Part shown: piece after piece, positions 1 through 26,442 of the stretch
How positions within the stretch are numbered: position 1 is the first letter of the stretch
How the letters are laid out: each line of letters opens with the position of its first letter
Source of the DNA: an uncultured Syntrophus sp.
Lineage (GTDB): Bacteria > Desulfobacterota > Syntrophia > Syntrophales > UBA8958
DNA length: 64,000 nt
Reading direction: 5' to 3'
Assembly (NCBI GenBank): GCA_964571695.1
Contig: CAZNDG010000012.1
Location: 2,296-66,295 of the forward strand
Notes under the pieces: generated by a model
What the model was told of the DNA's origin: nothing
The model's input: only the letters and a program-made list of their open reading frames with translations
Database searches by the model: none
Position numbers and translations under genes: made by a program

Positions 1-192
1 CTGATCCGTCTCCTGCCGGGGCGACGCGCCCGGGGCCTGTCCGGGTTTGCGCCGTTCCAGATCCGCCTGGATGTCCGCCGCCGTCAGCTCCAAACGCGGC
101 GGGCAGCCGTCTATGACGACACCGATGGCGGGGCCGTGGGACTCTCCCCAGGTGGTGACCCGAAAAAGGACGCCGGTAGTGTTACCTGACAT
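1..192 (-). CDS. aroC: chorismate synthase, N-terminal 64 codons (gene runs off the window start)
   Basis: Minus-strand translation from ATG at 192 reads [51 protein letters not shown]. This matches the conserved AroC N-terminus (FRVTTFGESHG motif). It overlaps the aroK stop by 11 nt. Confidence 0.85.
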
Positions 193-742
193 CGCTATTC
201 ATCTCCTTTGATTTGATTTTCTTCATTTTTGCCACTAAACCCATGATCTCCGCGGCGACCTCCGCGACGGTCAACCGGCTGGTGTCCACCACTCCGTCGG
301 CGACCCGGCGGTAGGCCGGTTCCCGTTCCCGGAGGAGCGATTTGATTTCCGCGCCCGCATCGCCGCCGGACAGGGGCGGTCGCTGGTCTCCGCTCTCCGG
401 GGCCTGCCCCAGGCGCTTCCTGATCGTGGCCACATCGGCGGTCAGCCAAAAAAACACCCCCCGGATCTTCAGATCCGCCACGTTGCGGCGATCGAGAACG
501 GCGCCGCCGCCCAGGGAGATGACCAGACCGTCCCGGTGGGCGATTTCCCGGATGCAGGCCCGCTCCGCGCTGCGAAAGGCGGGCCACCCGCCGTCGGCGA
601 CGAGCGCGCGGATCGATTTCCCCGTCCGCTCCTGGACCAGGGCGTCCGTGTCGAGAAACGGCCGCCGCATCTTTTCCGCCACCACCCGGCCCGCGGAGGT
701 CTTGCCGCAGGCCCGGTAGCCGATCAACACTATGTTCATCAT
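182..742 (-). CDS. aroK: shikimate kinase
   Basis: The ORF has the Walker A motif GYRACGKTS and a shikimate-kinase-like body ([16 protein letters not shown]). The start is ambiguous: TTG at 751, ATG at 742 or ATG at 739. Confidence 0.9.
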
Positions 743-751
743 ATTTTGCAA

Positions 752-2038
752 TTAGACCTGCCTTTGATCATATAATTTATCCAGCTCCCGCCAGAAGCCC
801 GGAAAGGACTTGTCCACGCAGCGGGGATTCCGGATCTTCACCCCCGGGACGACCAGACCCAACACGGCGAAACTCATGGCGATCCGGTGGTCGTTGTAGG
901 TTTCGATTTCTGAGCCGTGGGGATTGCCGCCGTCGATGACGAGGCCGTCCGGTTTCTCTTCCACCGGGACGCCCATCTTCCTCAGCTCCTCCGCCAGAGC
1001 CGCCAGCCGGTCGCTCTCCTTAATCCGGAGCTGGGCCACATTGGCGATCACCGTTCGCCCCGGCCGCACCGCGGCCAGGACTGCCAGGGTGGGGACCATG
1101 TCGGGCATGTCCTGGAGATCGAAGCGCCGCATCCCGGCCCGGAGCGGCCCGCCGGCAACCGCCGCTCCGTTTCCCCTGAGGGAGATGTCGCAGCCCAGTT
1201 CCTCCAGGAGCTTCAGGAAGCCGATGTCGCCCTGCCGGGTCCGGAGGGGGACGTTCTCGACCGCCACGCTGCCCCCGGTGAGGGCCGCGGCCAGGAAGAA
1301 GTAAGCGGCGCTGGAGGCGTCGCCCTCGATCCGGCAGTCCGTCCCCCGGTAGCTCTGGCCGCCCCGGATAATGTAACGGTCGGGAGTTTCCGTCCGGACC
1401 TCCACGCCGAATTCCCTCATGGCCTCGACGGTGACGGCGATGTAGGGCCGGGAGGGGATCAGTCCGGCCAAGTCTATCCGCATATCCCCCGCCGCGTAGG
1501 GGGCGGCGATGAGGAGGGCGGAGACGTACTGGCTGCTGTCGAGGTCCCGCAGGGTAACACTGCCGCCCGGCAATCCCGAAGTGCGAATCGAAACGGGGGG
1601 ATAGCCTTCGCGGCTAAGTCCCCGGGCCGTGATGCCGAGGCTGTTCAGGGCCGCCAGCAGCGGGGCGAGGGGTCGTTCCTGAAGCCGTTCGTCGCCGGTG
1701 AGGAGGAACTCCCCCCGGCCGATGGCGGTCACCCCGGTGAGGATCCGCATGGCTGTACCGTTGTTACCCAGGTAGATCTCCCGGCCCGGATTTTCCAGGC
1801 GGCCGCCGGTGCCGCCCACGACGAGGTCGTCCTGCCGGGGGGTGATGACGGCCCCCAGGGCCCGGAGGGCGGCGGTGAGGTGCGTGGTGTCCTCCGCCAC
1901 GAGGGGGCGACGCAGCAGAGACTCCCCCCGGGCGAGGGCGGCAAGGATCAACGCCCGCTGGGTGTAGCTCTTGGAACCGGGCACGGCCACGGCGGCGTTC
2001 AGTGGATGGAACAGCGGTCTGATGTCAACGGTTTCCAT
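752..2038 (-). CDS. aroA: 3-phosphoshikimate 1-carboxyvinyltransferase (EPSP synthase)
   Basis: The protein carries VPGSKSYTQRALILAALA and full-length EPSPS similarity. The start METVDIRPL at 2038 is preferred over the upstream ATG at 2077. Confidence 0.95.
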   Translation of the reverse strand: METVDIRPLFHPLNAAVAVPGSKSYTQRALILAALARGESLLRRPLVAEDTTHLTAALRALGAVITPRQDDLVVGGTGGRLENPGREIYLGNNGTAMRILTGVTAIGRGEFLLTGDERLQERPLAPLLAALNSLGITARGLSREGYPPVSIRTSGLPGGSVTLRDLDSSQYVSALLIAAPYAAGDMRIDLAGLIPSRPYIAVTVEAMREFGVEVRTETPDRYIIRGGQSYRGTDCRIEGDASSAAYFFLAAALTGGSVAVENVPLRTRQGDIGFLKLLEELGCDISLRGNGAAVAGGPLRAGMRRFDLQDMPDMVPTLAVLAAVRPGRTVIANVAQLRIKESDRLAALAEELRKMGVPVEEKPDGLVIDGGNPHGSEIETYNDHRIAMSFAVLGLVVPGVKIRNPRCVDKSFPGFWRELDKLYDQRQV

Positions 2039-2075
2039 AATATCATTCTCGATGGATCGGTATAAAGTCTCACCC

Positions 2076-2183
2076 AACCCTCCCCTTCAAGGGGAGGGTT
2101 GGGGTGGGGATGGGTTTAATCCCCTCCTGCCATTACCGGTAATAACCCCATCTCCCTCCTTGCCTCCCCCTTGCAGGGGTAGG
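2076..2183. repeat. pair of inverted REP-like units in the aroE-aroA spacer
   Basis: The unit at 2076-2116 has a perfect 10-bp stem (AACCCTCCCC/GGGGAGGGTT, loop TTCAA) followed by GGGGTGGGGATGGGTT. A related unit lies in inverse orientation at 2147-2183. A third copy is at 3273-3309. Confidence 0.6.
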
Positions 2184-2249
2184 AACAAACCACGAAGGGG
2201 ATGGGGAAAACACTTTTTGCGAAGTCATTGCAAAGGCAGCGCCGCCAGG

Positions 2250-3047
2250 TCATAACTCCGGCAGCGCCGCCAGGACAACCCGTTGCATGACCGCCGCCGG
2301 CGCCTCCCGGCCGGTCCAGATCCGGATCTGCTCCGCCCCCTGGCGGACGAAGAGGCCGATGCCGCTTATGGGGGTGCAACCGGCCGCCTCGGCTTCCCGG
2401 AGCAGCTTCGTCTTGCGGGGATTATAAACAGCGTCCATGACGAAGCGGAAATTGGGCAACGACTCCGGGGCCACCGGTGATTGTTCCGTATACGGATGCA
2501 TGCCCACGGGGGTTGTATTGATCAGCACATCGGCCCGGAAGTCCGCTACGGCGGCCAGGGGTCGGACCGGACAATGAAAGTCCCGGACCAGCGCCGCTCC
2601 CCGTTCGGGGGTCCGGTTGAAGATCACCGGCATGCCCCCTTGGCGGAGGATGCCGAAAATCGCCGCCCTGGCCATGCCGCCCGCCCCGAGGACGGCAAAG
2701 GTGTTTCCCCGGATCGGGACGTGCTCTTGCAGTTCCCGGACAAGACCGAGCCAGTCCGTGTTGTCCCCGACAAAACAATCCGCCTGCCTGACAACGGTAT
2801 TGACGGCACCGATCATCCGGGCGTTCGCCGTGACTTCATCAAGATGGGCGGCGATCCCCTCCTTGTGGGGAATGGTGACGCTGGCGCCGTCCAGACTAAG
2901 GGATCTCATCCGGGGGATGATTTCCCCCGCGTCAGCCAACCGGTATGCCTTGTAGGAGGCCTTAAGTCCCATGGAAGCATAGGCGGCCCGGTGCATAGCC
3001 GGGGAAAGGCTGTGCCCTATGGGGTCGCCGAAGAGGGCAAAGCGCAT
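2250..3047 (-). CDS. aroE: shikimate 5-dehydrogenase
   Basis: MRFALFGDPIGHSLSPAMHRAAY is a typical AroE N-terminus, and an NAD(P) glycine-rich site VLGAGGMARA is present. The start at 3047 was chosen inside the longer ORF 2250..3155. Confidence 0.9.
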   Translation of the reverse strand: MRFALFGDPIGHSLSPAMHRAAYASMGLKASYKAYRLADAGEIIPRMRSLSLDGASVTIPHKEGIAAHLDEVTANARMIGAVNTVVRQADCFVGDNTDWLGLVRELQEHVPIRGNTFAVLGAGGMARAAIFGILRQGGMPVIFNRTPERGAALVRDFHCPVRPLAAVADFRADVLINTTPVGMHPYTEQSPVAPESLPNFRFVMDAVYNPRKTKLLREAEAAGCTPISGIGLFVRQGAEQIRIWTGREAPAAVMQRVVLAALPEL

Positions 3048-3272
3048 ACCGCATCCTTCTAACGATTCCCGCTCGGGCCTGTTATCGCCATTGCTGTGCA
3101 AGCCGGCAGCCGAGTTTTTAGTATGAAAATACATCCGTTGGTCTCCCTTAAACATTTTTCATCGTTCGTGGGTGTTGGATAAAATTAAATTCTTTCGCGG
3201 ATGTGTTCCCATATATTCGATTTCATTCATGTCCGGCTTCATTAATTCCTGGATTTGGTCACCAATAATTTT

Positions 3273-3309
3273 CCTCTCCTTTAAGGGAAGGCTCAAGGTG
3301 GGGATGGGT
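3273..3309. repeat. third copy of the REP-like unit (aroD-aroE spacer)
   Basis: CCTCTCCTTTAAGGGAAGGCTCAAGGTGGGGATGGGT shares the hairpin plus GGTGGGGATGGGT tail with the units at 2076-2183. Confidence 0.55.
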
Positions 3310-3365
3310 ATTCCATTATATGAACATTAGGCTTCGCTTTCGTCCCTATTCACGACGGGATGCCG

Positions 3366-4079
3366 TTATGGGTGTTGCATGTTCTTCCCCGGAGGAATCA
3401 ATAAAGCCAGCGCCTTTTGCATCTCTTTGCAGGTGAACTGCCCCGGCGCCGTTTCCCGGCCCCTGGCAGCCGTGGCGTAGGTAAGGTGGGCGCCGAGCAG
3501 CAGCGACATGACCCGGCTGATCTTTCCCTGTTCGCCCATGGCGAAGGCGATGATCTCCTGCCCCCGCTGCTTGGAATAGGGGATCAAGGACAAGATACGG
3601 AGATTGTCCTCCGGAAGCCGGGCCAGGGTAACCACCTTGACGATGTCGCCCCCCTTTTCCCGACAGGCGCGCCAATGCCGCCGCAGGGAACCCACTCCCG
3701 GCGTGCCCCGCCAGTCGTGGCAGGAGATGATGATCCGGGGGCGCGGGCCGCTTTTTCCCGCCGCCGCTGCCGCGGTGAACAGTCTTTCCGCCAGCCGGTC
3801 ATCGGTCGCCGCTTCCAGGTCGAGATAATCGGCGCCGTTGACCGCGGCCCGGCAGAGTAAGTCGAGCCGCTGTTCCTCCGTACCGGCGAAGCTGCCTCCT
3901 TCCTTCCGGCGGCGGTTGGTAACGATAACGGGCCGGGTTTTCGCCCGGAGCAGCACCGCCAGATCGAGGTCGGCGATCAGGTCGAGACGCAGCTCGATGA
4001 GCGTGGCGGTGGGAGGGCAGGCGGCCATTTTTTTCAGGACCTCCGCCATGCTGTCCCCGCCCAGGGAGAGGCAGATCAC
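3366..4079 (-). CDS. aroD: 3-dehydroquinate dehydratase, type I
   Basis: The C-terminal 237 codons of the long ORF 3366..4814 read VICLSLGGDS...IELRLDL...VIVTNRR...IISCHDW...KVVT, which are type I DHQase features. The GTG start overlaps the pheA stop (GTGA). Confidence 0.8.
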   Translation of the reverse strand: MICLSLGGDSMAEVLKKMAACPPTATLIELRLDLIADLDLAVLLRAKTRPVIVTNRRRKEGGSFAGTEEQRLDLLCRAAVNGADYLDLEAATDDRLAERLFTAAAAAGKSGPRPRIIISCHDWRGTPGVGSLRRHWRACREKGGDIVKVVTLARLPEDNLRILSLIPYSKQRGQEIIAFAMGEQGKISRVMSLLLGAHLTYATAARGRETAPGQFTCKEMQKALALLIPPGKNMQHP

Positions 4080-5155
4080 TGTCCCTCCTCTCCCCGGGCG
4101 TAGGAACCGAGGACCTTGATGAAAGTCGTGGTGTTTGCCATCTCCTGAAGGCATCCGGCCACCGGTTCGTCTTCCCGGTGCCCGGCCAGATCGGCGAAGA
4201 AGAAATATTCCCACTTCCGGTCCCGGAGGGGGTGGGACTCGATGCGCAGGAGGTTGATCCTTTCCCGGGCAATGGGAGCCAGGGCCTGGTGCAGGGCCCC
4301 CGGAACATGGGGAGTTCCGAAGAGGATGGATGTCTTGTCCCTGCCGGTCAGCTCCCCTTCCCCGCGGCCGAGGACGAGGAAGCGGGTGGTGTTGCCCGGA
4401 TTGTCCTCTATGTCCGCCGCCAGGATCGCCAGGCCGTTGATCTCCCCGGTGAGCCGGCTTCCCACCGCCGCCCCGGCGGGATCGACCAGGGCCTGTCTGC
4501 CCGCGGCGGATGTGCTGGCCGTCTCGCACTGCTCGACCCGGGGAAGGTTCTCGGCGAGCCAGCGCCGGCACTGGGCCAGGGCCTGGGGGTGGGAGTAAAC
4601 ACGTTCGATTTCCTCCCGCCGGGCATGGTTTGTGAGGAGGCACAGGGAAACCGGCAGGAAGATTTCCGCCCTGATTGATAGGGGAGTCGCGATGAGTCGG
4701 CGCAGGGTATGGCCCACGGAGCCCTCGGTGGAGTTTTCCACGGGGACGATGCCCAGGAAGTTCCGATCCCGTTCCGCCCGGTCGAAGACATGGTCGATGG
4801 TGGCGGCGGGCCACAGTTCCGCGCCGTGGCCGAAATGGGCCCGGGCGGCCAGGTGGCTGAAGGAGCCTTTCGGACCGAGATAGGCGACGGTCAGCGGCGC
4901 CTGGAGCGCCCGGGAGGAGGAAAAAATCTCCCGGAAGATCTCCGCGACTGCCTGGTCTGGCAATGGCCCCGCATTGTGCCGTTTCAGGAAGGCCAGGATC
5001 CGGGCCTCCTGGTCGGGACGGTAAACGTCGGCGTCGGCTTCTTTCTTGACCTTGCCGATGGCGACGGACCGCGACGCCCGTTCGTTCAAAAGGCGCAGCA
5101 ATTCCGTGTCGATGTCCCGCACCTCCCGACGAAGTGTTTCCAGTGATTTTTTCAT
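4076..5155 (-). CDS. pheA: bifunctional chorismate mutase / prephenate dehydratase (P-protein)
   Basis: There is an N-terminal CM helix region (LRREVRDIDTELLRLLNERA), a PDT domain (VAYLGPKGSFSH) and a C-terminal ACT-like region (TSILFGTPHVPGALHQAL). Confidence 0.9.
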   Translation of the reverse strand: MKKSLETLRREVRDIDTELLRLLNERASRSVAIGKVKKEADADVYRPDQEARILAFLKRHNAGPLPDQAVAEIFREIFSSSRALQAPLTVAYLGPKGSFSHLAARAHFGHGAELWPAATIDHVFDRAERDRNFLGIVPVENSTEGSVGHTLRRLIATPLSIRAEIFLPVSLCLLTNHARREEIERVYSHPQALAQCRRWLAENLPRVEQCETASTSAAGRQALVDPAGAAVGSRLTGEINGLAILAADIEDNPGNTTRFLVLGRGEGELTGRDKTSILFGTPHVPGALHQALAPIARERINLLRIESHPLRDRKWEYFFFADLAGHREDEPVAGCLQEMANTTTFIKVLGSYARGEEGQ

Positions 5156-5171
5156 CTTTCCTCTTCCGGCG

Positions 5172-6308
5172 TCACTTGCCGCCTGTCTTAACCCGGCGCT
5201 GTACCTTCCGTTCCGGTGCCGCCGCCGGTAGGATCTCCCTGATCCTCTCGACCGGGATTCCCCCGTTGACGAATGGCATCCCCGGCCTCTTCAGGAGGAC
5301 GAAATGGATCATGCCGCCTGTCTTCTTCTTGTCATGTTCCATCCGGGCCATGATGGCCTCACGGTCCAGGGCGGCGGGCAGCCGGACAGGCAGCCCCAGC
5401 TTCTGGAGGAGCGCGACGATCCGCTCGCCGTCAGCTTCGGGGAGGTGGCCGAGGCGCTGGGAAAGGGCCAGTGCCCCCGCCATGCCGATCGAAACCGCCT
5501 CGCCGTGGGGAAGGGCGTAGGCGGACGCCGCTTCGACGGCGTGACCGAGGGTGTGGCCGAAATTGAGGATACGCCGCAGCCCATGCTCCTTTTCGTCTAT
5601 CTCGACGATCTTCTTCTTGATTTCTCCCGCCCTCGTCACTATGGGCAGGAGGGTGTCCAGGTCGTCGCCCCGCCGCAGGATTGCCGCCCGGTCCTCCAGG
5701 ATTTCCAACAGACCGGGATCGTCGATGACGGCGCATTTGACGATCTCCGCCAGACCGTTGCCCATTTCCCGCGCCGGCAGGGTCCGGAGGAATTCCAGGT
5801 CCGCGAAGACCGCCTTGGGCTGGTGAAAGGTCCCCAGGATGTTCTTGGCGGCAGGGAGATCAACGCCGGTCTTGCCGCCGATGCTGCTGTCCACCTGGGC
5901 CAGGAGGGTGGTGGGGAATTGGAGGCAGGGGATCCCCCGCATGTAGATGGAGGCGACGAACCCCGTCAAATCGCCCACCACGCCGCCGCCCAGGGCGATA
6001 AGTCCCGTGGCGCGGTCCGCCCCCCGGCGGAGTAGTTCCTCGGCAACGGCGACGGCGGTAGCCATGGTCTTGGCCTCCTCGCCGGCGGGAATGGTGATGG
6101 ACTCCAGCGACAACCCCGCCTTCCGCAGGGTTTCCGCCACCCGCTCTCCGTGGAGGGCGGCGACTTTGGCGTCGGTGATGAGGAAATACCGCTGCGCCCA
6201 GTTTCCCTTGGCGATGAGCAGGGCCGCCCGATCCAGGATATCCCGGCCGATGAAAACTTCATGGGACCGGGATGTCTTCTTCTCGAGACTGATCTTGAAG
6301 CGGTTCAT
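5172..6308 (-). CDS. aroB: 3-dehydroquinate synthase
   Basis: Translation from [10 protein letters not shown] shows LIALGGGVVGDLTGFVAS, GGKTGVD and HGEAVSIGM, which are DHQS motifs. The ATG overlaps the aroF stop (ATGA at 6305-6308). Confidence 0.9.
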   Translation of the reverse strand: MNRFKISLEKKTSRSHEVFIGRDILDRAALLIAKGNWAQRYFLITDAKVAALHGERVAETLRKAGLSLESITIPAGEEAKTMATAVAVAEELLRRGADRATGLIALGGGVVGDLTGFVASIYMRGIPCLQFPTTLLAQVDSSIGGKTGVDLPAAKNILGTFHQPKAVFADLEFLRTLPAREMGNGLAEIVKCAVIDDPGLLEILEDRAAILRRGDDLDTLLPIVTRAGEIKKKIVEIDEKEHGLRRILNFGHTLGHAVEAASAYALPHGEAVSIGMAGALALSQRLGHLPEADGERIVALLQKLGLPVRLPAALDREAIMARMEHDKKKTGGMIHFVLLKRPGMPFVNGGIPVERIREILPAAAPERKVQRRVKTGGK

Positions 6309-7333
6309 TGGCGCACCTCGATCCGGTTCTTCATGACCTCTGAAAGGATCCGCATCTCTTCCATAAGCTCGTAGAACTTTTCCGGTTTCAGGGACTGTGC
6401 CCCGTCGGAAATGGCCTTGGCGGGTTCGGGATGGACCTCGATGATCAGGCCGTCCGCCCCGGCTACGATGGCCGTCCGGGCCAGGGGCTTGACGTATTGC
6501 CAGTGACCGGCGGCGTGACTGGGATCGACGATGACGGGGAGATGGGTAAGCTCCTTGAGGACCGGCACGGCGCTGATGTCCAGGGTGTTGCGGGTGGCCG
6601 TCTCGAAGGTGCGGATCCCCCGTTCGCAGAGGATGACGTTGTCGTTGCCCGCGGCAAGGATGTATTCTGCCGCCATGAGGAGTTCCTCGATGGTGCACAT
6701 CATTCCCCGCTTCAGGAGGACGGGTTTTCTCGCCTGTCCCACCTTCTTCAGGAGGGCGAAGTTCTGGACGTTTCGCGCCCCGATCTGGAGGATGTCGGCA
6801 TACTGTTCCACCAGATCCACGTCGGTGGTGTTCATCACTTCCGTCACGACGGGGAGACCCGTCTTCTCCCGGGCCTTCTTGAGGATCTTGAGGCCCTCCT
6901 CTTCCATGCCCTGGAAGCTGTACGGCGACGTGCGGGGTTTGTAGGCCCCGCCCCGGAGTACCTGGGCGCCCCCTTTCCGGGCGATGTAGGCGCTTTCGAG
7001 AAGCTGCGCCTCACTTTCGATGGAGCAGGGTCCGGCCATAACAACGAAATCCGGACCGCCGATCTCCAGATCGCCCACCCGGACGATCGTGTCGCCGTCC
7101 CGGGACTCGCGGCTGGCCAGCTTGTAGGGCTTGAGGATGGGCATGACCTTTTCCACCCCCGGCAGGTGCTCCGTGGCCTTCAGTTGCGCCTTGCCCCGGT
7201 CGTCGCCCACGATGCCGATGATCGTCCTCTCCACCCCCTGGGAGGGGTGGGCCTGGTAGCCCACCGACTCGATCCAACCGATGACGTGGTCCACCTGCTT
7301 TTCCGTGGCGTTTTTCTTCATGATTATAACCAT
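6305..7333 (-). CDS. aroF: 3-deoxy-7-phosphoheptulonate (DAHP) synthase, type I-beta with N-terminal regulatory domain
   Basis: The protein is collinear with Thermotoga-type DAHPS ([38 protein letters not shown]). A GGAGG lies 8 nt upstream of the ATG at 7333. Confidence 0.9.
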
Positions 7334-7351
7334 TTTTTAGACCTCCAAAAG

Positions 7352-7389
7352 GAAAGGCCATGGGAACCGCCGCCGCCCCATGGCCTTTC
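7352..7389 (-). promoter_or_regulatory. 13-bp stem-loop just upstream of the aroF ribosome-binding site
   Basis: The minus strand reads GAAAGGCCATGGG-GCGGCGGCGGTT-CCCATGGCCTTTC followed by CTTTTGGAGG. Its arms are also complementary to the arms of the upstream terminator hairpin. Confidence 0.55.
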
Positions 7390-7390
7390 A

Positions 7391-7432
7391 GAAACAAAAA
7401 AGCCACGGGGGAACTGCCGCTCCGCCCATGGC
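7391..7432 (-). terminator. intrinsic-terminator-like hairpin in the aro leader (candidate attenuator)
   Basis: The minus strand reads GCCATGGG...CCCGTGGC (8-bp stem with one G.U pair) followed by TTTTTTGTTTCT. It lies between the leader ORF and aroF. Confidence 0.6.
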
Positions 7433-7455
7433 TCATTTTTTATTTTCTCGGGGGG

Positions 7456-7542
7456 TTACCCCTCCCTGAGCGACAGGCGGACCGGCGCGCCGTAAAAATA
7501 ATACCAGTAATAAAAGCTGGAAAGCGCGCTGTGGTTACCCAT
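7456..7542 (-). CDS. candidate aro-operon leader peptide (28 aa, FYYWYYFY)
   Basis: The minus-strand ORF reads MGNHSALSSFYYWYYFYGAPVRLSLREG*. It has eight consecutive aromatic codons in AT-rich codons within a GC-rich genome. An AAGGAG lies upstream at a rather long 16-nt spacing, and hairpins plus a U-tract lie downstream. Confidence 0.6.
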   Translation of the reverse strand: MGNHSALSSFYYWYYFYGAPVRLSLREG

Positions 7543-7584
7543 CGTGTCGGTTGATAGACTCCTTGCCTAAATTCGTGGCATGAG

Positions 7585-7613
7585 AATTACTCACAGTTTT
7601 TTCCCCATGTCAA
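7585..7613 (-). promoter_or_regulatory. possible sigma-70 promoter of the aro operon
   Basis: The minus strand has TTGACA (7613-7608) followed 15-18 nt later by AGTAAT/GTAATT/TAATTC. The -10 assignment is ambiguous. Confidence 0.3.
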
Positions 7614-7859
7614 CAAAAAAATCGTCAGACAAGGAAAAACCCGGCGCTATTGATAGCCATGCCCATAACGGGCATAACAAAAAATTATAAAATCCATTTG
7701 GTTGAGGGCTTTTCCATATAAATTTTCATATATGCCATGTCCGTCCGCCGTGGGTGGTTCCCGATATTGGGAGTTTTGCAGAACCGCGGGAAAATGGTTC
7801 GCAAGCGGCGAATCAAATGTTTTTCTCCGTTTTTCGTGATTGAACTTAACGCCTGGTTA

Positions 7860-7937
7860 TGAATAAGATTTATACGTTACCCATTTCAGAAGTGAATAAG
7901 ATTTCTGAGCCGCGGCGAAGCCATTTTTCAAAGTCTC
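7860..7937. repeat. ~75-bp interspersed repeat, copy A (inverted relative to copies B and C)
   Basis: TGAATAAGATTTATACGTTACCCAT..GATTTCTGAGCCGCGGCGAAGCCATTTTTCAAAG aligns at roughly 85-90% identity (by eye) with the reverse complements of 58065-58131 and 60896-60973. Confidence 0.75.
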
Positions 7938-7951
7938 GATATTATGGACGG

Positions 7952-9538
7952 TCACGCCGGAACCGCTCTCCCCTCTCCATATACCAGCATGCGATAGGTC
8001 TTCTCGATGCGGTCCCAGTTTTCCTCCCGGTCCATGGACCAGAAACGGCCGATGACGGAAACTATCTGTCCCAAACCCAGGGAGGCGCATTTTTTTTCCA
8101 CTTCCTGGATATAGCGGGCGCCGCTTTCCGGCTGCTCCCCGCGGCGGCCCAGCATGGCGTGGATGTAAACCTCCGGCACGGATTGCCGTCGTGCCATCTC
8201 CAGGAGGGCGAAGAGATGGGGGAGGGAGCCGTGGGAGCTGAAGAAGGAGACGATGCCCATGAGGTGCAGGGCGGTTTTCCTTTCTTTGGCGGCATTCATG
8301 ACCTTCAGGAAGGCCTTGTTCCGGAAGAAGGCGCCGTCGGCGATGGCCCGGTCGATGCGGACCCGGTCGGAATAGATCCGTCGGCCGGCGCCGATGTGGA
8401 GATGTCCGGCCTCGGAGTTGCCCACGGTGCCCGGGGGCAGGCCCACGGCTTCACCGGCGGCCGCCAGGACGGCAAAGGGGTGGTCGGACAGCAGCCGGTC
8501 CATGACGGGCGTCCGGGCGGAAGCGAGGAGGTTGCCGTAGGCGTCTTCCCGGTAGCCCCAACCGTCGAGGAGGAGATATAGGACCCGAGTTCTGACTTTT
8601 TCATCTCCATTGCCAGGATTCCTTTCGATCAGGGATCGGCCCGTCATCAGCGGGGAGGAGGAGAGCCCCAGGAGATCCAGGACCGTCGGCGCCGCGTCGG
8701 CAAGCTCCCCCTGCTTTCGAATAGTTATCCCTCCTTCCGGGGAGATGAGGACTAAGGGGACGGGACTGTCCGTGTGCCCGGTGTCCACGGCGCCGTCGGG
8801 GTAAAGCCATTTCTCCACCGTGCCGTGGTCGGCGGAGACGACGACCGTCATCCCCGCTTCGGCGGCGGCGGCGATGGCGGCGCCCGCCTGGCGGTCCACT
8901 GCTTCGATGGCCTGGATGATGGCCTCCCGGTTTTCAATGTGTCCCACCACATCCACATTGGGAAAGTTGGCAAAGATAAAGGAATAGCGCTGGTCCCGGA
9001 TCGCGTCCGCGACCGCCGCCCCGATCTTTCCGATGGACATCTCCGGGGCGGCATCGAAAAGGGCGACGTCCTTGCGGGTCGGCACCACGATCCGGTCTTC
9101 ACCGGGGAAGGGCTCCTGCCGCTTGCCGTTGAGGAAATAGCTCACATGGACCGCCTTTTCCGCCTCGGTGATCTTCACCTGCCTCAGACCGGCCCGGGCG
9201 ATCAGGGCGCTCAGGGTATCCTCCAGGGTTTCTTCGGGGGGAAAGGCCACCTCCACGGGAAGGTCCCGCCGGTACTCGATCATGGTGGCGTAGGCCAGCC
9301 CCAGGTCCGGCGTGGTGGGAAATTCGGCGAAACCCTTTTCTGTGAGGCTTCTGGTCAGTTCTATTTCCCGTTCTCCCCGGATGTTGTAAAAGATTACGGC
9401 GTCGCCCTTGCCGATCCTGCCGAACGGCGCGCCGTTCCTTCCTCTGGCGACCAATGGCTGCAGTGTCTCGTCTTCCTCGCCGGCCCGGTATGACTTGCGG
9501 ACCGCCTCGGACAGCGAATAATTCCCGGTTGGCTCCAT
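7952..9538 (-). CDS. gpmI: 2,3-bisphosphoglycerate-independent phosphoglycerate mutase, circularly permuted domain order
   Basis: All iPGM motifs are present (LDGWGY, GNSEAGH, FYNIRGER, GLRQVKITEAEK, PEMS, NVDVVGH, SADHG, MTGRSLI). The segment normally at residues ~232-511 comes first and the segment ~5-231 comes last. A GGAG lies 9 nt before the ATG at 9538. Confidence 0.85.
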   Translation of the reverse strand: MEPTGNYSLSEAVRKSYRAGEEDETLQPLVARGRNGAPFGRIGKGDAVIFYNIRGEREIELTRSLTEKGFAEFPTTPDLGLAYATMIEYRRDLPVEVAFPPEETLEDTLSALIARAGLRQVKITEAEKAVHVSYFLNGKRQEPFPGEDRIVVPTRKDVALFDAAPEMSIGKIGAAVADAIRDQRYSFIFANFPNVDVVGHIENREAIIQAIEAVDRQAGAAIAAAAEAGMTVVVSADHGTVEKWLYPDGAVDTGHTDSPVPLVLISPEGGITIRKQGELADAAPTVLDLLGLSSSPLMTGRSLIERNPGNGDEKVRTRVLYLLLDGWGYREDAYGNLLASARTPVMDRLLSDHPFAVLAAAGEAVGLPPGTVGNSEAGHLHIGAGRRIYSDRVRIDRAIADGAFFRNKAFLKVMNAAKERKTALHLMGIVSFFSSHGSLPHLFALLEMARRQSVPEVYIHAMLGRRGEQPESGARYIQEVEKKCASLGLGQIVSVIGRFWSMDREENWDRIEKTYRMLVYGEGRAVPA

Positions 9539-9738
9539 AATGTCGATCTCCCCGTTTGGATGTCGCGGCCGTCCGTACCTTCCTGCCGGGATGTCCGGCG
9601 GTCCGCTGTTTTTCGGCTTGTTGGCCGGGACGCGCTAAGGGTACCGCCCGCGCGTGACTTGTATAGAAAAGCACCGGGCCTGTAAAGAAAAAATCAGAAC
9701 AATGTCGGCTATTCCCCGGTTCGGGTCGTGCTTTTTAA

Positions 9739-9767
9739 TTGATCGTCAACAACTTAAGTGATAGAAT
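9739..9767 (+). promoter_or_regulatory. sigma-70-like promoter
   Basis: TTGATC (9739-9744), a 17-nt spacer and TAGAAT (9762-9767) lie 40 nt upstream of the ORF at 9808. Confidence 0.5.
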
Positions 9768-9807
9768 ACCTTACATGAATTAACATCGGGAAGGCATCGG
9801 CGGCAAG

Positions 9808-10197
9808 ATGAAGGAAAAAACGGTTGATGATGTCCTTCGGGAGGAATTCCTCAAAGAGCGGGCCGTGGTCCTGGGGCGGACCGGGGAGAGCGTGGCCCGG
9901 GCCATTGCCAAGCTCCAGCGTCTGGCGCAGATTATAGAAAATCGTCATCAGGAGCTCCGGCGCCTGGACCGGGAGCCAGACGGCGACGCGGAATGCCATG
10001 GACTCAGGACGGCGAAAGAAAGGGCCGTCAACGATATCAACAGCAAGATCGCCCAGTACAACCGACTCTGGGACCACGCCCAGTTGCGCTACTATTATCT
10101 CATCGTCACCAGGGAGGCCATGGGGTTGCGAAGCCATCATCGCGTGGAGGAGATATATCGCATTCCCCCGAAGAAAAAAAAGCTTTCAGGAGGATAA
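9808..10197 (+). CDS. hypothetical protein (129 aa), translationally coupled to pcm
   Basis: The ORF has plausible composition and helix-rich, charged sequence. Its stop overlaps the pcm start (TAATG). I do not recognise a family. Confidence 0.55.
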   Translation: MKEKTVDDVLREEFLKERAVVLGRTGESVARAIAKLQRLAQIIENRHQELRRLDREPDGDAECHGLRTAKERAVNDINSKIAQYNRLWDHAQLRYYYLIVTREAMGLRSHHRVEEIYRIPPKKKKLSGG

Positions 10198-10850
10198 TGG
10201 ACCGATTCCAGAAGCTGCGGATTAAGATGGTGGAGAACCAGATCAGGGCCCGGGGAGTGACCGACGAAAGGGTCCTGTCCGTGATGGCCAAAATACCCCG
10301 CCATCTTTTTGTCGACGAAGCCCTCATCGAACAGGCGTACAACGACAACCCCCTGCCTATTGGAAAGAGCCAGACGATCTCGCAGCCTTACATTGTTGCC
10401 CTGATGACGGCGGCACTGAAGCTGACGGGAAGGGAAAAGGTGCTGGAGATCGGTACGGGGTCAGGTTATCAGACCGCGATCCTGGCGGAACTGGCGGAAC
10501 AGGTCTTTTCCATCGAACGTATTGCCCAGTTGGCGGCGGGGGCGAGGAAGCAACTGGACGCCCTCAACTGCTTCAATGTGGCCATGCGGGTCGGGGACGG
10601 CACCTACGGCTGGCGGGAGGAGTCTCCTTTTGACGGCATCATGGTCACGGCGGGGGCGCCGAAGGTTCCGGCAATCCTTATGGAACAGCTTGCCGTCGGC
10701 GGCCGTCTCGTCATACCAACGGGAGGACGGATAAGCCAGGAGTTGCTCAGGGTTACCCGCATGTCCGCCGATCTGAATGAGGTCAAGACGGAGGTCCTGT
10801 GTGGATGCCGTTTTGTCGATCTCATTGGCGAGCATGGTTGGAATAATTGA
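10197..10850 (+). CDS. pcm: protein-L-isoaspartate O-methyltransferase
   Basis: MDRFQKLRIKMVENQIRARGV...IGKSQTISQPYIVALM...VLEIGTGSGYQTA are canonical PCM motifs. Confidence 0.92.
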   Translation: MDRFQKLRIKMVENQIRARGVTDERVLSVMAKIPRHLFVDEALIEQAYNDNPLPIGKSQTISQPYIVALMTAALKLTGREKVLEIGTGSGYQTAILAELAEQVFSIERIAQLAAGARKQLDALNCFNVAMRVGDGTYGWREESPFDGIMVTAGAPKVPAILMEQLAVGGRLVIPTGGRISQELLRVTRMSADLNEVKTEVLCGCRFVDLIGEHGWNN

Positions 10851-10852
10851 GC

Positions 10853-11776
10853 ATGCCTCCCGGTGCCGCCGTTTTGAAGAAACTCGCCATGAGATGTCTT
10901 GCCGTATTAATGGCTCTTCTGAGCCTCTTCCTTTTCGCCTGCGCCGGTCAAAAGAATGTCGTCCGTCCGGGAAAGGGGGTGTATCATCCGGTAAAAAAAG
11001 GGGAAACCCTCTCGCAGATAGCCCTGGCCTATGAGGTTAGTCAACGGAAGCTGGCGGACGTAAACAATATCCGGCGTCCCGATCACCTGGAAGCGGGAAG
11101 TGCGGTCTTTGTACCCGATGCTGTCCGGGTGCTCGATGTGGACAAGGTTTTGCAGGCGAAGGCGGCCGTTGATAAAGCGGAAAAGGGACCGGCAAAGAAG
11201 GGAAGAGAGAAAAAACCGTCCGCCGCAGCAGGGGTGAAGGAGCGTAAACAGGCGGAGCTTTCCCGGGAGGACACGCCAAAACCAGGGGTTGATCATCGGA
11301 AAGGGGGGGCTGTAAAACCGGATAAGGAAAAAAACCGGGACGCCAGTCCCACCGCCGCTCCGCCTCCTCCTCTGCCGGGGACTTCGGTGAGTATGACCCC
11401 GGGCAAGGGTTCGTTTGCCTGGCCCGTGCGGGGTCGCGTAACGTCCCGCTTCGGGAGGCAGCCCAACGGAATGGTCTTCAATCATATCCGGATTACAACC
11501 CGGGATCACGCCCAGATTGTTGCTGCCGCCTCGGGGACGGTGATCTTCTCCGCTCCCCTCCGGGATTTCGGAGAGACGGTCATCATCAAGCATGACGATG
11601 ATTTCGCCACGGTTTACACCCATTTGGGCAGCAGGTCCGTCCGGGCGGACAGCCGCATCAAGAAGGGGGAGATTGTCGGTCAGACGGGAAAATCGGACAA
11701 GAAGGGGGAGGGATACATGAATTTTGAAATCCGCCGACACAACAAGGCACTGGACCCGCTTTTATTTCTGCCTTGA
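10853..11776 (+). CDS. nlpD: LysM / degenerate M23 (LytM) lipoprotein, NlpD-like
   Basis: There is a signal peptide with a lipobox-like LFAC and a LysM domain (YHPVKKGETLSQIALAYEV). The C-terminal M23 fold has HxxxD reduced to HIRIT and HxH reduced to MNF. Gene order is pcm-nlpD. The start is TTG at 10847 or ATG at 10853. Confidence 0.8.
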   Translation: MPPGAAVLKKLAMRCLAVLMALLSLFLFACAGQKNVVRPGKGVYHPVKKGETLSQIALAYEVSQRKLADVNNIRRPDHLEAGSAVFVPDAVRVLDVDKVLQAKAAVDKAEKGPAKKGREKKPSAAAGVKERKQAELSREDTPKPGVDHRKGGAVKPDKEKNRDASPTAAPPPPLPGTSVSMTPGKGSFAWPVRGRVTSRFGRQPNGMVFNHIRITTRDHAQIVAAASGTVIFSAPLRDFGETVIIKHDDDFATVYTHLGSRSVRADSRIKKGEIVGQTGKSDKKGEGYMNFEIRRHNKALDPLLFLP

Positions 11777-11994
11777 ATATGAATGCCCCGATGCATATAT
11801 TTCTCACTGAGCGCCAGGAGATACTGCGGGATGAAGAAGGAGGAGGTGCCGATATTTCTTTTCCTCCCCGGCGCCCGGCACATGCTCATACAACGATGGA
11901 TACTAATGGTGGTTCGGGAAGGTTCCGGGACATGTTCATGCCTTACCTCCCCGGTCGCCGAGGACGAGAAGAATGAAGGAAAGACAGACATATT

Positions 11995-13143
11995 ATGGAA
12001 TTGTCGTTTGAACAGGGGCCCATCCGACCGCCCAGCGAGGCTAAAAGCCTGCTGATTCGGGCCACGAGAAATTGCCCGTGGAATAAGTGCGCATTTTGCC
12101 GCACCTATCAGCGGAAGAAATTCGAACTCCGGAGCATCGAGGAAGTCAAAGACGATATCCGGAATGCCCGGATGATCGCCGATGAGATCCGGGCCCTGTC
12201 CTGGAAACTCGGCGGCGGAGGTCGGGTGACCGATGCGGTGGTCCGGCTCGTTTACAAAGGCGGCAACGGTTACAACGACGCTTTTCGCTCCGTTTGTGCC
12301 TGGTTGTACTGGGGAGGGGAGTCGGTTTTTCTTCAGGATGCCAACTCCCTGATTCTGAAGACCGATGAGCTTGTGGAGATCCTCTCCTTTATCAAGGAGC
12401 AGTTTCCCGGCGTTAACAGGATTACCTCCTACTGCCGCTCCAAGACGGCGGCCAGAAAAAGCGTGGCGGAGCTGGAGAGGATTCGCGAGGCGGGCCTGTC
12501 GCGGATTCATGTGGGCATGGAGAGCGGCTGCGATCCGCTCCTTGAATTCATTCGGAAGGGCGCCACGGCCGCCGACCATGTCGAAGGGGGGAAAAGGATC
12601 GTCGCGGCGGGCATTTCCCTCTGCGAATACATAATTCCCGGCCTGGGCGGCGAGAGCTGGTCTCGGGAGCACGCCGTCGCCACCGCCGCGGCCGTCAACG
12701 CCATCAATCCCGACTTCGTGCGGTTGCGGTCCCTTCAGGTCGTCAAGGGAACGGGCCTTTATGAGCGGATGCAAAACGGTGAATTCACCCCTCAGGGGGA
12801 CGAGGAGACGGTGCGGGAGATCCGCCTGTTCATCGAAAACCTGACGGGGGTGCGGACAACCATCGTCAGCGATCATATCCTCAACCTCCTGGAAGAGGTG
12901 GAGGGAAAGCTTCCCGAAGACCGGGACAGGATTCTCGCCGTCATCGATATGTATCTGTCCCTGCCGGAACAGGACCGGATGATTTTCCGCCTGGGGCGGA
13001 GGCAGGGGATATACCGGCGTCTAACCGACCTGAACGATCCGCTCATGTATGGACGGCTGAAGGCCGTTACGGATGAATACGTCCCGGATGACGCCGGGCG
13101 GTTCGAGGCCGACCTGAAGGAGTTGATGCATCATTATATATGA
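11995..13143 (+). CDS. radical SAM domain protein of unknown function
   Basis: The N-terminus reads GPIRPPSEAKSLLIRATRNCPWNKCAFC, a Cys triad with CX4CX2C spacing. It is followed by a TIM-barrel-like radical SAM core (FLQDANSL, RIHVGMESG). Confidence 0.7.
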   Translation: MELSFEQGPIRPPSEAKSLLIRATRNCPWNKCAFCRTYQRKKFELRSIEEVKDDIRNARMIADEIRALSWKLGGGGRVTDAVVRLVYKGGNGYNDAFRSVCAWLYWGGESVFLQDANSLILKTDELVEILSFIKEQFPGVNRITSYCRSKTAARKSVAELERIREAGLSRIHVGMESGCDPLLEFIRKGATAADHVEGGKRIVAAGISLCEYIIPGLGGESWSREHAVATAAAVNAINPDFVRLRSLQVVKGTGLYERMQNGEFTPQGDEETVREIRLFIENLTGVRTTIVSDHILNLLEEVEGKLPEDRDRILAVIDMYLSLPEQDRMIFRLGRRQGIYRRLTDLNDPLMYGRLKAVTDEYVPDDAGRFEADLKELMHHYI

Positions 13144-14888: not shown

Positions 14889-14919
14889 GCCCGGAGGACC
14901 TTGACCTCCGGGCTTTTTT
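14889..14919 (+). terminator. rho-independent terminator
   Basis: GCCCGGAGG-ACCTTGA-CCTCCGGGC is followed by TTTTTT, 12 nt after the stop of the PIN-TRAM gene. Confidence 0.75.
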
Positions 14920-15019
14920 ATGTCTGATGCATGTGTACGCTCCCCGCGGCGGGGTCTCCGGGCGCACGACTATTTCGGACTTTCGTTTTACCTGATTCGG
15001 GCATGGGGGGCTTAGGAAG

Positions 15020-15709
15020 GTGCAGGCCACGGCCATCATCCCCGCCGGCGGGAGCGGCCGGCGCATGGGCGGCACGGAAGCGAAGCAGTACCTGCTGCTT
15101 CAGGGGATTCCCCTGCTGGTCCATACCCTCCAGATGTTTCAGGAGGCGGCGGCGATCGGGGAGATAATCCTCGCCGTACCCGCCGCCGATGTGGATAGAA
15201 TCCGGAGGGAAATACTGGAACCCTTCCGATTGACCAAAGTCCGGCGCGTGGTGGCGGGCGGGCGGCAAAGGCAGGATTCGGTCCATAACGGCATAGCGTC
15301 CTTGGCCGATGATTGCGAACTGGTCGTCATTCATGATGCCGCCCGGCCTTTTGTCACGCCGGACTTGATTGCCCGGGCCGTGGAAGGCGCGGCACGATTC
15401 GGCGCCGTCGCCGCGGGCATCCCGGCCAGGGATACCATCAAGTGTTGCGACGACGCGGGCCGGGTTGTCCGTACCCTGCCCCGGGAGCGGATCTGGATCG
15501 TGCAGACGCCCCAGGCCTTCCGCCGGGAGACTATTGTCGCCGCTCACCGGCAGGCCTGCCGGGACAATTTCACCGGGACCGACGACGCAGCCCTGGTGGA
15601 GCGTCTGGGCGTTGCGGTGCGGATGATCGTGGGCGCGTTCGAAAATATAAAGATTACCACCCCCGAAGATCTGGTCTGGGCGGAACATATCTTGTCGGCG
15701 CGGCGATGA
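15020..15709 (+). CDS. ispD: 2-C-methyl-D-erythritol 4-phosphate cytidylyltransferase
   Basis: AIIPAGGSGRRMG...KQYL and VVIHDAARPF are IspD motifs. The start is GTG. Confidence 0.9.
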   Translation: MQATAIIPAGGSGRRMGGTEAKQYLLLQGIPLLVHTLQMFQEAAAIGEIILAVPAADVDRIRREILEPFRLTKVRRVVAGGRQRQDSVHNGIASLADDCELVVIHDAARPFVTPDLIARAVEGAARFGAVAAGIPARDTIKCCDDAGRVVRTLPRERIWIVQTPQAFRRETIVAAHRQACRDNFTGTDDAALVERLGVAVRMIVGAFENIKITTPEDLVWAEHILSARR

Positions 15710-15848
15710 TTGGCTGTGGTAAGGATCTGGACGCCGCCGTGCCCCGGAGGTGGGGGGCGGCCAGCCGGCATAGAGTTTTGCCGGGGTTGGGATAACCTCC
15801 GCCCGTAAGCGATGGGACCGCCGTTGAAGAACCCGGAGGAAAGTGAAA

Positions 15849-16364
15849 ATGACAGGCAGCGGTGAACGGGGAATAAAAACGGCCCGCGTGGGCATCGGTT
15901 ATGACAGCCACCGCTGGTGCGACGGCCGTCCCCTTGTCCTGGGCGGGGTGGTGATTCCCCATTCCTGGGGACTCTCCGGCCACTCCGACGCCGACGCCTT
16001 GATCCATGCCATCTGCGATGCCGTCCTTGGGGCTGTGGGCGCCGGGGATATCGGCGCCCATTTTCCAGATACCGATCCTGCTTACCGGGGGATCTCCAGC
16101 CTCGTCCTCCTGACCCGGGTAAGGGAGATTGCGACCGCCCGGGGATGCCGGGTGGTGAATGTGGATGCCACGGTGATCATGGAGCGGCCGAAATTGCGCG
16201 CCCATATCGACGGAATGATCGCCAATATTGCCGCCGCCCTGGCCATGGATGACGCCGCGGTGAGCATCAAGGCCAAGACCAACGAGGGGATGGGCTTCGT
16301 AGGCCGGGGGGAAGGGGTCGCCGTTATGGCCGTGGCCCTGGTGGAGCCGGCCGTAGTGACCTGA
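15849..16364 (+). CDS. ispF: 2-C-methyl-D-erythritol 2,4-cyclodiphosphate synthase
   Basis: RVGIGYDSHR...GHSDADALIHAICDAVLGA...DIGAHFPDTDP are IspF motifs. ATG at 15849 (GGAGGA 8-9 nt upstream) is preferred over GTG at 15843. Confidence 0.9.
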   Translation: MTGSGERGIKTARVGIGYDSHRWCDGRPLVLGGVVIPHSWGLSGHSDADALIHAICDAVLGAVGAGDIGAHFPDTDPAYRGISSLVLLTRVREIATARGCRVVNVDATVIMERPKLRAHIDGMIANIAAALAMDDAAVSIKAKTNEGMGFVGRGEGVAVMAVALVEPAVVT

Positions 16365-20379: not shown

Positions 20380-21645
20380 TCAAGGCGACGCTTCCTCATT
20401 CCTCGCCCACTTGTGGTACCGGATCAGCAACAGCAGGCCGGGGGCCGCCAGGGCGGTGCAGATGACGAAGAACCAGACCCAGCCCACGGCAACGACGAGG
20501 AAACCCGTCGGCGCCCCGGTGACATAACGGCTGACGGCCATGAGACTGCTCAGGAGGGCGTACTGGGTGGCCGTGAAGCGGGTGTTGCAGAGCCCCATGA
20601 GCAGCGCCGTGTAAGCCGCCGTCCCCATGCCCCCGCAGATGTTCTCGATCCCGATGACCGTGCTCAGGGCCCAGATCTGGCGGCCCGTGAACTCGAGCAG
20701 CACGAAAGAGATGGTGGAGACGCCCTGGAGGACGCCGAAGACCAGCAGCGACCGCCGCAGATCCCATTTCGTCATCAGCGCCCCGCCCACGATGCCGCCC
20801 AGGATGGTGGCGGCCATGCCGAAGCCCTTGAAGATCGTTCCCAATTCCGTCCGGGAAAATCCGATATGTTGGAGGATGTAGGGAGTGGTCATCTGGGCGG
20901 CGGCAACGTCGCCGAGCTTGTAGAGGATGACGAACAGCAGGATCTCCACCGCCCCCGGCCGCTTGAAAAACTCCACGAAGGGCTGCAAGACCGCCTCCCG
21001 GAGACTCTGGGGCGGCGCCGCGTCGTGCCGGAGGGGCCTCCCCGCCTCGGGGTCGGGACAGAGGAAGGTGGCGGCAACGCCGACCAGCATGACCAAGCCC
21101 ATGATGACATAGACGCTCCGCCAGGAGATATGATCCGACATGATCAAAGCCAGGGCGCCGCTGACCAGAATGGCGAGCCGGTAGCCCATGATCCAGATCC
21201 CGGCGCCGGCGCCCCGTTCTTCCGGGGCGAGGTATTCCGTCCGGTAGGCGTCCAGGACGATGTCCTGGCTGGCGCTGAAGAAGGCCAGCGCGACGGCCCA
21301 GAAGGCGACGATCAAGGGCTGGGAGGCGGGACTGAAAAAACCCAGCGTGGCGATGGTGGCGATGAGGGCCCCCTGGGTGATGAGCATCCATCCCCGTCGC
21401 CGGCCCAGAAAGGGGGGAAGGAAGCGATCCAGCAGCGGCGACCAGAGAAATTTGAACGCGTAGGGGAGACCGACGAGAGAAAAGATCCCGATCGTCTTGA
21501 TGTCCACGCCCTCCGTAACCATCCAGGCGGCGAGGGTGGAGCTGGTCAGGGCCAGGGGCATCCCCGAGGCAAAGCCCAGAACCAGCATGAGAATCATCTT
21601 TTTGGTGAAATAGATCCGGAAAATATCGAAAATATTTGTCTTCAC
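20380..21645 (-). CDS. ampG: AmpG family muropeptide MFS transporter
   Basis: LVLGFASGMPLALTSSTLAAWM...LPYAFKFLWSPLLDRF matches the AmpG N-terminal signature, and the protein has ~12 TM segments. The GTG start overlaps the upstream stop (GTGA). Confidence 0.85.
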   Translation of the reverse strand: MKTNIFDIFRIYFTKKMILMLVLGFASGMPLALTSSTLAAWMVTEGVDIKTIGIFSLVGLPYAFKFLWSPLLDRFLPPFLGRRRGWMLITQGALIATIATLGFFSPASQPLIVAFWAVALAFFSASQDIVLDAYRTEYLAPEERGAGAGIWIMGYRLAILVSGALALIMSDHISWRSVYVIMGLVMLVGVAATFLCPDPEAGRPLRHDAAPPQSLREAVLQPFVEFFKRPGAVEILLFVILYKLGDVAAAQMTTPYILQHIGFSRTELGTIFKGFGMAATILGGIVGGALMTKWDLRRSLLVFGVLQGVSTISFVLLEFTGRQIWALSTVIGIENICGGMGTAAYTALLMGLCNTRFTATQYALLSSLMAVSRYVTGAPTGFLVVAVGWVWFFVICTALAAPGLLLLIRYHKWARNEEASP

Positions 21646-25993: not shown

Positions 25994-26442
25994 GTTTTCC
26001 CCGGAGTTGAAGTAGTCTGAGTGGTTTCTATATGAACCGGCGATGTATTTCAAGAAAATAAAGTTTTACCCGGCAATAAGTCCTCTCCGGCGTCACCGGA
26101 CGAATCGCTCCGCTTCCCGCCGCTGGCCCTTCAGCAAAGCCCGGCACGGTTATTTCTTGACATCGAGCGGCAAAAAAACGAAAAGAGGCAAAATGACCGG
26201 CGCACAAAAAATTCTCATGCCCCGCGGCGCGCCGGGAAGCGCTATACTCGGATTTGATTTTTAGCGGTGGCTCTGGGGACTCACTATTTAGCATTTAGAT
26301 CTGAAAGCGCCGTCCAAGTTCATGAGGACTCCATTTTGCCGGGTCGTCAAGTCCGGGTCGGCCGGGCAGGAGAAGGAACGTAAATGTACCGGATGAAAAT
26401 CACTATTGGCGGCGATTATCGCCGGACCCCGGCGGTGTGGTC

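Follow-up and report, generated by a model that had tools for sequence, protein, structure and literature searches.

The 64,000-nucleotide stretch of DNA analyzed here (the window; positions 2,296 to 66,295 of contig CAZNDG010000012.1 in assembly GCA_964571695.1, from an uncultured Syntrophus sp.) encodes a protein of the cofactor-independent phosphoglycerate mutase (iPGM) family that is a genuine, clean circular permutant of this enzyme. Its complete coding sequence occupies positions 7952–9538 of the window on the minus strand according to the list of open reading frames (ORFs), and comprises 528 amino acids between an ATG start and a stop codon at 7952–7954. A Shine-Dalgarno-like GGAG can be read 9 nt 5' of the ATG (9548–9551, minus strand). 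A preliminary description had already given this length and this Shine-Dalgarno motif, both of which were confirmed on the minus strand, and had proposed that the two halves of the protein are swapped, with the old termini fused and the new termini located within the transferase domain. It named as checks a doubled-sequence alignment, a domain-order scan, an orthologue search and a comparison of a predicted structure with iPGM structures, and the outcome of each, given below, agrees with a permuted iPGM.

In a phmmer comparison with PDB chain 1EJJ_A (iPGM of G. stearothermophilus, whose numbering is used for all canonical residues), residues 319–524 of the query correspond to residues 6–211 of the chain (207 bits) and residues 11–304 to residues 218–509 (202 bits), so that the order of the segments is swapped. 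The canonical iPGM P0123 gave two high-scoring segment pairs (HSPs) of 221 and 218 bits when used as a single copy, which merged into one when the reference was doubled (query 12–523 against positions 222–727, 426 bits, 43.6% identity over 516 columns). The Pfam domains Metalloenzyme (PF01676, 189.3 bits, cutoff 24.3) and iPGM_N (PF06415, 187.5 bits, cutoff 27) both score above gathering, and each is split into two stretches in the query. The chain reads transferase C-half, phosphatase C-part, linker, phosphatase N-part, transferase N-half, rather than in the canonical order. The chain is cut within the transferase (iPGM_N) domain, in a loop that follows the helix WDRIEKTYRMLVYGEG and corresponds to canonical residues ~212–217. 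As stated in the preliminary description, no second iPGM fragment is present: tblastn with the protein against the whole window returned a next match of E = 1.1.

Mapping of the phmmer alignment onto the minus strand delimits the parts of the protein, with part boundaries that follow the domain limits of canonical iPGM as described for the 1EJJ structure (Jedrzejas et al., 2000). Residues 1–101 (9236–9538) form the new N-terminus and the second half of the transferase domain, correspond to canonical residues 218–310 and include Arg54 and Arg57 (canonical Arg261 and Arg264). Residues 102–304 (8627–9235; canonical 311–509) make up the C-terminal part of the phosphatase (Metalloenzyme) domain, and include Lys128 and the metal ligands Asp196, His200, Asp237, His238 and His255. 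They are followed by a 14-residue linker that is unaligned in phmmer and leads from the ancestral C-terminus to the ancestral N-terminus (residues 305–318, ERNPGNGDEKVRTR; 8585–8626). The N-terminal part of the phosphatase domain (residues 319–389, 8372–8584; canonical 6–76) includes Asp325 and the nucleophile Ser375 in the motif GNSEAGH (codon 8414–8416), and the first half of the transferase domain together with the new C-terminus (residues 390–528, 7955–8371; canonical 77–211) includes His436, Arg466, Arg498 and Arg504. In the canonical enzyme, the transferase domain sits within the phosphatase domain via two hinge peptides (PMC5382265). In the query this nesting is inverted, with a contiguous phosphatase domain (~102–389, linker included) inserted between the transferase halves 1–101 and 390–528.

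Structural modeling with AlphaFold2 (alignment of 70 sequences) gave a predicted local distance difference test score (pLDDT) of 86 and a predicted template modeling score (pTM) of 0.76, with low confidence in the linker (pLDDT <50 at residues 311–314). A Foldseek search of the PDB with this model returned 22 matches with E <= 0.001, all of them to iPGM structures at probability 1.0. The alignments have TM values of 0.37–0.54 and cover ~300 sequential columns, as expected when an aligner that depends on sequence order is given a permutant. The three-dimensional fold of both iPGM domains is predicted to be kept.

An unusual domain order in a single contig might reflect misassembly, a chimera or the remnant of a tandem duplication; beyond the order itself, nothing was found in favor of such an artefact, and we consider it exceedingly improbable. 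In a locus scan that covered one genome for each GTDB species, all 80 loci obtained are permuted, and in 81/81 related loci (L001–L081) a single stop-free HSP of at least 500 residues runs collinear with the query. Among these are Syntrophus buswellii DM-2, a cultured organism with a closed genome, and several metagenome-assembled genomes (MAGs) with closed chromosomes. A search of 5.8 billion proteins identified >120 clusters at 64–93% identity, mostly from Syntrophales, Smithella and Syntrophus MAGs. Nearly all of their alignments are collinear across 98–100% of the query, and the permuted order is also seen in >240 additional 90%-identity clusters. Assemblies produced independently (NCBI, ENA, JGI and Logan) show the same order, and synteny on the upstream side is kept in 74–77 of the 81 loci. 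The intact loci, the closed genomes and the lack of an extra fragment in the window exclude an artefactual origin, in line with the view of the preliminary description that the gene is not simply a truncated tandem duplication. A 934-residue protein (P0238) was considered as a duplication intermediate and rejected, as it is an iPGM of canonical order joined to a membrane and extracellular tail of unrelated sequence.

The ratio of nonsynonymous to synonymous substitution rates (dN/dS) is 0.22–0.25 against four orthologues, which shows the gene to be under purifying selection. The most variable part of the protein is the linker, which differs in length and sequence among relatives, as expected for the junction of the former termini. 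Low-complexity inserts of ~35–90 residues, rich in Ala, Pro, Gly and Ser, are located exactly at the fused-termini linker in P0003, P0005, P0006 and P0007, and a shorter insert of ~20 residues is found in P0002.

Permuted proteins are also found at greater distance. In an exhaustive phmmer search of 1.84 billion cluster representatives, the 150 best matches listed include 13 full-length permuted proteins (36–53% identity) and ~127 of canonical order. All permuted proteins examined are cut in the same loop. The permuted form is thus common and no singleton; it is the norm throughout one bacterial order (Syntrophales), is found outside this order as well, and in total spans at least two phyla.

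The permuted proteins fall into two groups. Group A consists of P0125, P0126, a small clade of P0132 and P0304–P0306, and a module in P0244. Its members share the cut loop, the short-linker type and the domain order with the query, are 51–55% identical to canonical iPGMs and 41–43% identical to the query's clade, and differ from the query in that they keep every canonical motif (GVHS, LDGRD and Asp263). The gene for P0304 overlaps an upstream phosphoglucose isomerase gene by 8 nt in an apparent operon; the permuted topology thus occurs in a setting that is plainly glycolytic and accords with a role in glycolysis. The module in P0244 (residues ~3850–4371, with a canonical FLDGRD) lies within a predicted protein of 5027 residues, which could represent either a genuine fusion or a run-through of the gene call. 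Group B includes the query, other Syntrophales, Ca. Desulfofervidus (including Ca. Desulfofervidus auxilii), Pseudomonadota MAGs and many Anaerolineae. A profile search added >110 group-B clusters, of which the few with a named organism derive from Anaerolineae, Anaerolineales or Chloroflexota MAGs.

Neighbor-joining trees were constructed from computationally un-permuted sequences together with 119–139 canonical representatives. The group-B clan has a bootstrap support of 97–99%, and all permuted proteins jointly only 1–2%. An attempt to demonstrate a single origin of all permuted forms thus failed, and these may have arisen once or, through repeated permutation at the same iPGM loop, several times.

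Natural circular permutants of other enzymes likewise have swapped halves and a cut in a surface loop, retain their fold and vary in the linker at the old termini. Unlike these, the present case involves the inverted inserted domain of a two-domain enzyme that closes around a hinge, and in one clade the pocket is remodelled too. The comparison with the canonical iPGM of bacteria and eukaryotes (GpmI/GpmM; structures 1EJJ, 1O98, 2IFY, 4MY4 and 5KGN; PF01676 and PF06415; TIGR01307) shows that both domains are common to the two, with 38–48% identity per segment. The query differs in its permuted chain, the contiguous phosphatase domain, the split transferase domain, the 14-residue fusion of the termini, and in the pocket motifs, where DGGVHSH is replaced by FFSSHGS, LDGRD by LGRRG and Asp263 by Glu. 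With archaeal-type iPGM (apgM; TIGR00306, NF003160; Metalloenzyme and PhosphMutase domains), which is encoded in the same genomes, the query has the superfamily core and the metal and serine chemistry in common. The apgM models match only ~90 residues around the metal site, however (TIGR00306, 41.3 bits against 320; NF003160, 19 bits against 468), and the cap domain differs from that of the query, which is not an apgM member.

The preliminary description was unaware of a described permuted iPGM, and we too found none in full-text searches of open-access papers, with an earlier mention elsewhere being possible. Permuted iPGM thus seems never to have been described before; the sequences themselves are already public. 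A survey scored S. aciditrophicus as lacking dPGM and as having, besides one bacterial-type iPGM locus, three archaeal-type homologues; the iPGM locus, presumably the permuted one, was counted without remark on its chain order (Foster et al., 2010; PMC2964296, Table S1). The enzyme is not mentioned in a proteomics paper on S. aciditrophicus (PMC8942843).

Within the permuted chain we identified the catalytic residues of the iPGM family. Asp325, Ser375, Asp237 and His238, and Asp196, His200 and His255, are equivalent to Asp12, Ser62, Asp444 and His445, and to Asp403, His407 and His462, respectively, and these metal-ligand sets agree with those reported for C. elegans iPGM (PMC5382265). The Ser nucleophile and the seven metal ligands are invariant in all permuted relatives examined (121 near relatives, 12 distant permuted representatives and 127 further group-B proteins), as are the equivalents of His123, Arg185, Arg191, Arg261, Arg264 and Lys336. 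Among the residues that contact the substrate in the canonical pocket (structures 1EJJ and 1O98), the query keeps these six and Arg153, and has Gly467 in place of Asp154.

We regard as the best explanation, and as somewhat probable, that the protein is a selected, catalytically competent permuted phospho-Ser metallo-mutase, for which we infer activity and substrate, the latter most likely still the pair 3-phosphoglycerate (3PG) and 2-phosphoglycerate (2PG). The protein belongs to the iPGM family within the alkaline-phosphatase superfamily, and retains two inter-domain hinges. Two metal ions would be bound by Asp325, Ser375, Asp237 and His238 and by Asp196, His200 and His255, and the phosphoryl group would pass to Ser375 and then back to a neighboring hydroxyl, while the acid moiety would be held by His436, Arg466, Arg498, Arg504, Arg54, Arg57 and Lys128. 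With 3PG/2PG as the likeliest substrate pair, the enzyme would serve gluconeogenesis or glycolysis in the Syntrophales bacterium. The permutation and its recurrence, the predicted fold, the conserved catalytic residues, the purifying selection and the glycolytic setting of P0304 in group A argue for this explanation, as does the lack of dPGM in S. aciditrophicus together with its one iPGM locus of bacterial type (PMC2964296, Table S1). The equivalog model TIGR01307 scores above its cutoff (466.1 bits against 330.65).

Several observations weigh against a 3PG/2PG mutase, and most of them concern the pocket. Canonical residue frequencies were counted in 119 canonical representatives. Five near-invariant positions are changed in essentially all of group B. 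Gly121 (92/119), Val122 (107/119) and Ser124 (85/119) are replaced by Ser, Ser and Gly, respectively, and this change of GVHS to Ser-Ser-His-Gly (SSHG) is found in 21/21 group-B representatives and 127/127 further proteins. Asp154 (117/119) is replaced by Gly or Ser, and Asp263 (117/119) by Glu. The query's own clade has in addition Gly for Asp151 and Arg for Gly152 (each 118/119). This group-B signature is absent from every canonical-order representative checked. Asp154 is presumably a substrate-contacting residue, as in the B. stearothermophilus structures and as its conservation counts suggest. Beyond the pocket, the query scores below the cutoff of the GpmI equivalog model NF003897 (389.7 bits against 862), and the organisms concerned have other candidate phosphoglycerate mutases (PGMs), such as the three archaeal-type iPGM homologues of S. 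aciditrophicus.

In the window the remodelled motifs SFFSSHG and LGRRG are encoded at 8228–8248 and 8138–8152, respectively (minus strand). The preliminary description had listed HLMGIVS (followed by FFSSHG) and VYIHAMLGRRG as blocks matching canonical iPGM; these are precisely the sites where Gly121, Val122 and Ser124, Asp151 and Gly152, and Asp154 have changed. Its statement that the protein contains every hallmark of iPGM holds for the catalytic Ser, the metal ligands and the Arg, Lys and His residues, but is overstated with respect to the near-invariant pocket residues that are replaced. The permutation does not itself demand pocket changes, since group A lacks them, and the group-B replacements point to a substrate pocket that has probably been remodelled under selection. 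As this remodelling accompanies the permutation in the query's clade, its function as iPGM is less certain than its fold as iPGM.

Such a pocket may indicate that group B has been neofunctionalised, with the same fold and chemistry acting as a mutase, phosphotransferase or phosphatase on another phosphorylated acid or sugar acid, and with apgM paralogues providing the housekeeping PGM. We consider this a serious possibility, though one that probably does not apply. It is favored by the restriction of SSHG, of Gly or Ser for Asp154 and of Glu for Asp263 to a permuted clade with 97–99% support, by the three apgM homologues of Syntrophus, and by a dN/dS of ~0.23, which is unremarkable for a non-core enzyme. 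However, the residues that bind carboxylate and phosphate (four Arg, Lys and His) are all invariant, which fits a phosphoglycerate-like substrate, and the apgM paralogues may have other roles, some apgM-like families being proposed homoserine kinases. That S. aciditrophicus was scored as lacking dPGM and as having only this one iPGM locus of bacterial type likewise speaks against a change of function.

The gene neighborhoods in Anaerolineae bear on the same question. A conserved gene row surrounds the group-B gene in 4/4 loci (L084, L085, L088 and L089; ~5000–13000 in each), with the order 1–3 HAD hydrolases, group-B gene, apgM, 1–2 kinases resembling PRK or uridine kinase, MFS transporter, RpiR and ABC transporter. 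The apgM proteins score above the equivalog cutoff (NF003160, 555 bits against 468), and the apgM gene directly adjoins the group-B gene in 3/4 loci; in L084, the two are separated by a small ORF and a kinase gene, and apgM is split into two calls. The PRK-like kinases are ~395 residues long and have a 180-residue N-terminal extension. The row adjoins sugar-acid genes (a divergent set of LacI, UxaE, SDR and LarA-like genes), and in a further locus (L086) the group-B gene is immediately preceded by an ABC transporter that has a PhnS2-like binding protein. Both arrangements favor a new function for group B, and the presence of apgM beside the group-B gene in 4/4 Anaerolineae loci argues that the two are not redundant, a further point against a 3PG/2PG mutase. 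Nearby kinases, HAD phosphatases and organophosphate transporters also fit glycerate or phosphoglycerate metabolism, however, and the query's clade lacks the Anaerolineae operon.

In that clade, only a divergently transcribed small ORF, pcm and an NlpD-like gene are conserved as neighbors (74–77 of the 81 loci), and this gene context is uninformative on function. In L001 a phosphoglycerate kinase gene is found ~10 kb from the permuted gene, a point in favor of a role as PGM. Scans of the flanks 7334–7951 and 9539–9807 with Rfam and for promoters and terminators gave nothing significant.

A more far-reaching version of the neofunctionalisation model, which we think unlikely but worth stating, is that group B constitutes a large overlooked subfamily whose remodelled pocket serves a reaction other than 3PG/2PG interconversion. 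This reaction would be part of an uncharacterised organophosphate or sugar-acid pathway, which in Anaerolineae would be encoded beside apgM, PRK-like kinases, HAD phosphatases and an ABC transporter, the iPGM loop perhaps having been permuted repeatedly.

The loss of Asp154 and of the LDGRD motif could also mark a degenerate or hydrolytic relic that acts as a phosphatase only or is heading for loss. Public names of the permuted proteins are inconsistent (iPGM, 'alkaline phosphatase family protein', 'sulfatase-like hydrolase/transferase' or 'hypothetical'), and the alkaline phosphatase and sulfatase-like names given by some pipelines would suit such a relic. These names stem from the failure to reach model cutoffs, due to the permutation, and not from functional evidence; their inconsistency is consistent with a failure at NF003897 that is caused by the permutation. 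Moreover, the whole transferase domain with its Arg and His residues is conserved among proteins that are only 36–53% identical, the gene is intact in 81/81 loci, and selection is purifying. A relic is for these reasons improbable, and a competent permuted mutase, most likely acting on 3PG/2PG, is the reading we prefer.

Among two-domain enzymes that work through a hinge, iPGM is a textbook case, and it serves as a drug target in nematodes, trypanosomatids and bacteria. Because its domain insertion is inverted, the natural permutant amounts to an experiment, already in place, on how the enzyme folds, how its hinge works and how much change the fold tolerates. As an evolutionary route circular permutation is known; here it concerns a central enzyme that has been studied well, occurs widely, and goes together with an unexplained change of the pocket. 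The permutation explains why pipelines name these proteins inconsistently, and because of this inconsistent naming the PGM step may be missed or mis-assigned when the metabolism of syntrophic Desulfobacterota and of Anaerolineae is reconstructed. The altered pocket, together with the second PGM encoded in the conserved operon, raises the question, which can be tested, of whether neofunctionalisation has taken place in central carbon metabolism.

Other features of the window include a 129-residue ORF at 9808–10197 (plus strand), which immediately precedes pcm and is oriented divergently to the permuted gene. It has no Pfam or NCBIfam match, is conserved by tblastn in 75/81 Syntrophales loci and is likely a real, uncharacterised small protein. 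Directly downstream of the permuted gene lies a compact aromatic amino-acid operon (182–7333, minus strand), with genes for a DAHP synthase with a ferredoxin-like N-domain, aroB, pheA (CM-PDT-ACT), aroD, aroE, aroA and aroK, separated from the stop codon of the permuted gene by a 618-bp gap in which no feature was detected. A functional link to this shikimate operon was rejected, as the adjacency is found only in the window and in the closest relative, L003.

A group II intron is located at 36166–37967 (minus strand), with Rfam RF02003 (domain D1–D4) at 37827–37967. Its reverse transcriptase/maturase is split over overlapping ORFs, one with RVT_1 (36719–37381) and one with the end of RVT_1 and GIIM (36166–36786), which suggests a frameshift. 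Three signalling proteins with PAS/GAF and HD_5 (HD-GYP-type) domains are encoded within the 64 kb on the minus strand (24182–26053, 45455–47704 and 55514–57901), one of them with a receiver domain. A 524-residue ORF at 22600–24174 (minus strand) contains two Thy1 (ThyX) stretches and is about twice the usual length of ThyX, and may be internally duplicated or over-extended. Long ORFs without a Pfam match at E <= 1e-5 are found at 14918–15895, 20396–21898, 49060–51408 and 54274–55539, and at 20.4–21.9 kb ORFs of ~490–500 residues are open on both strands.

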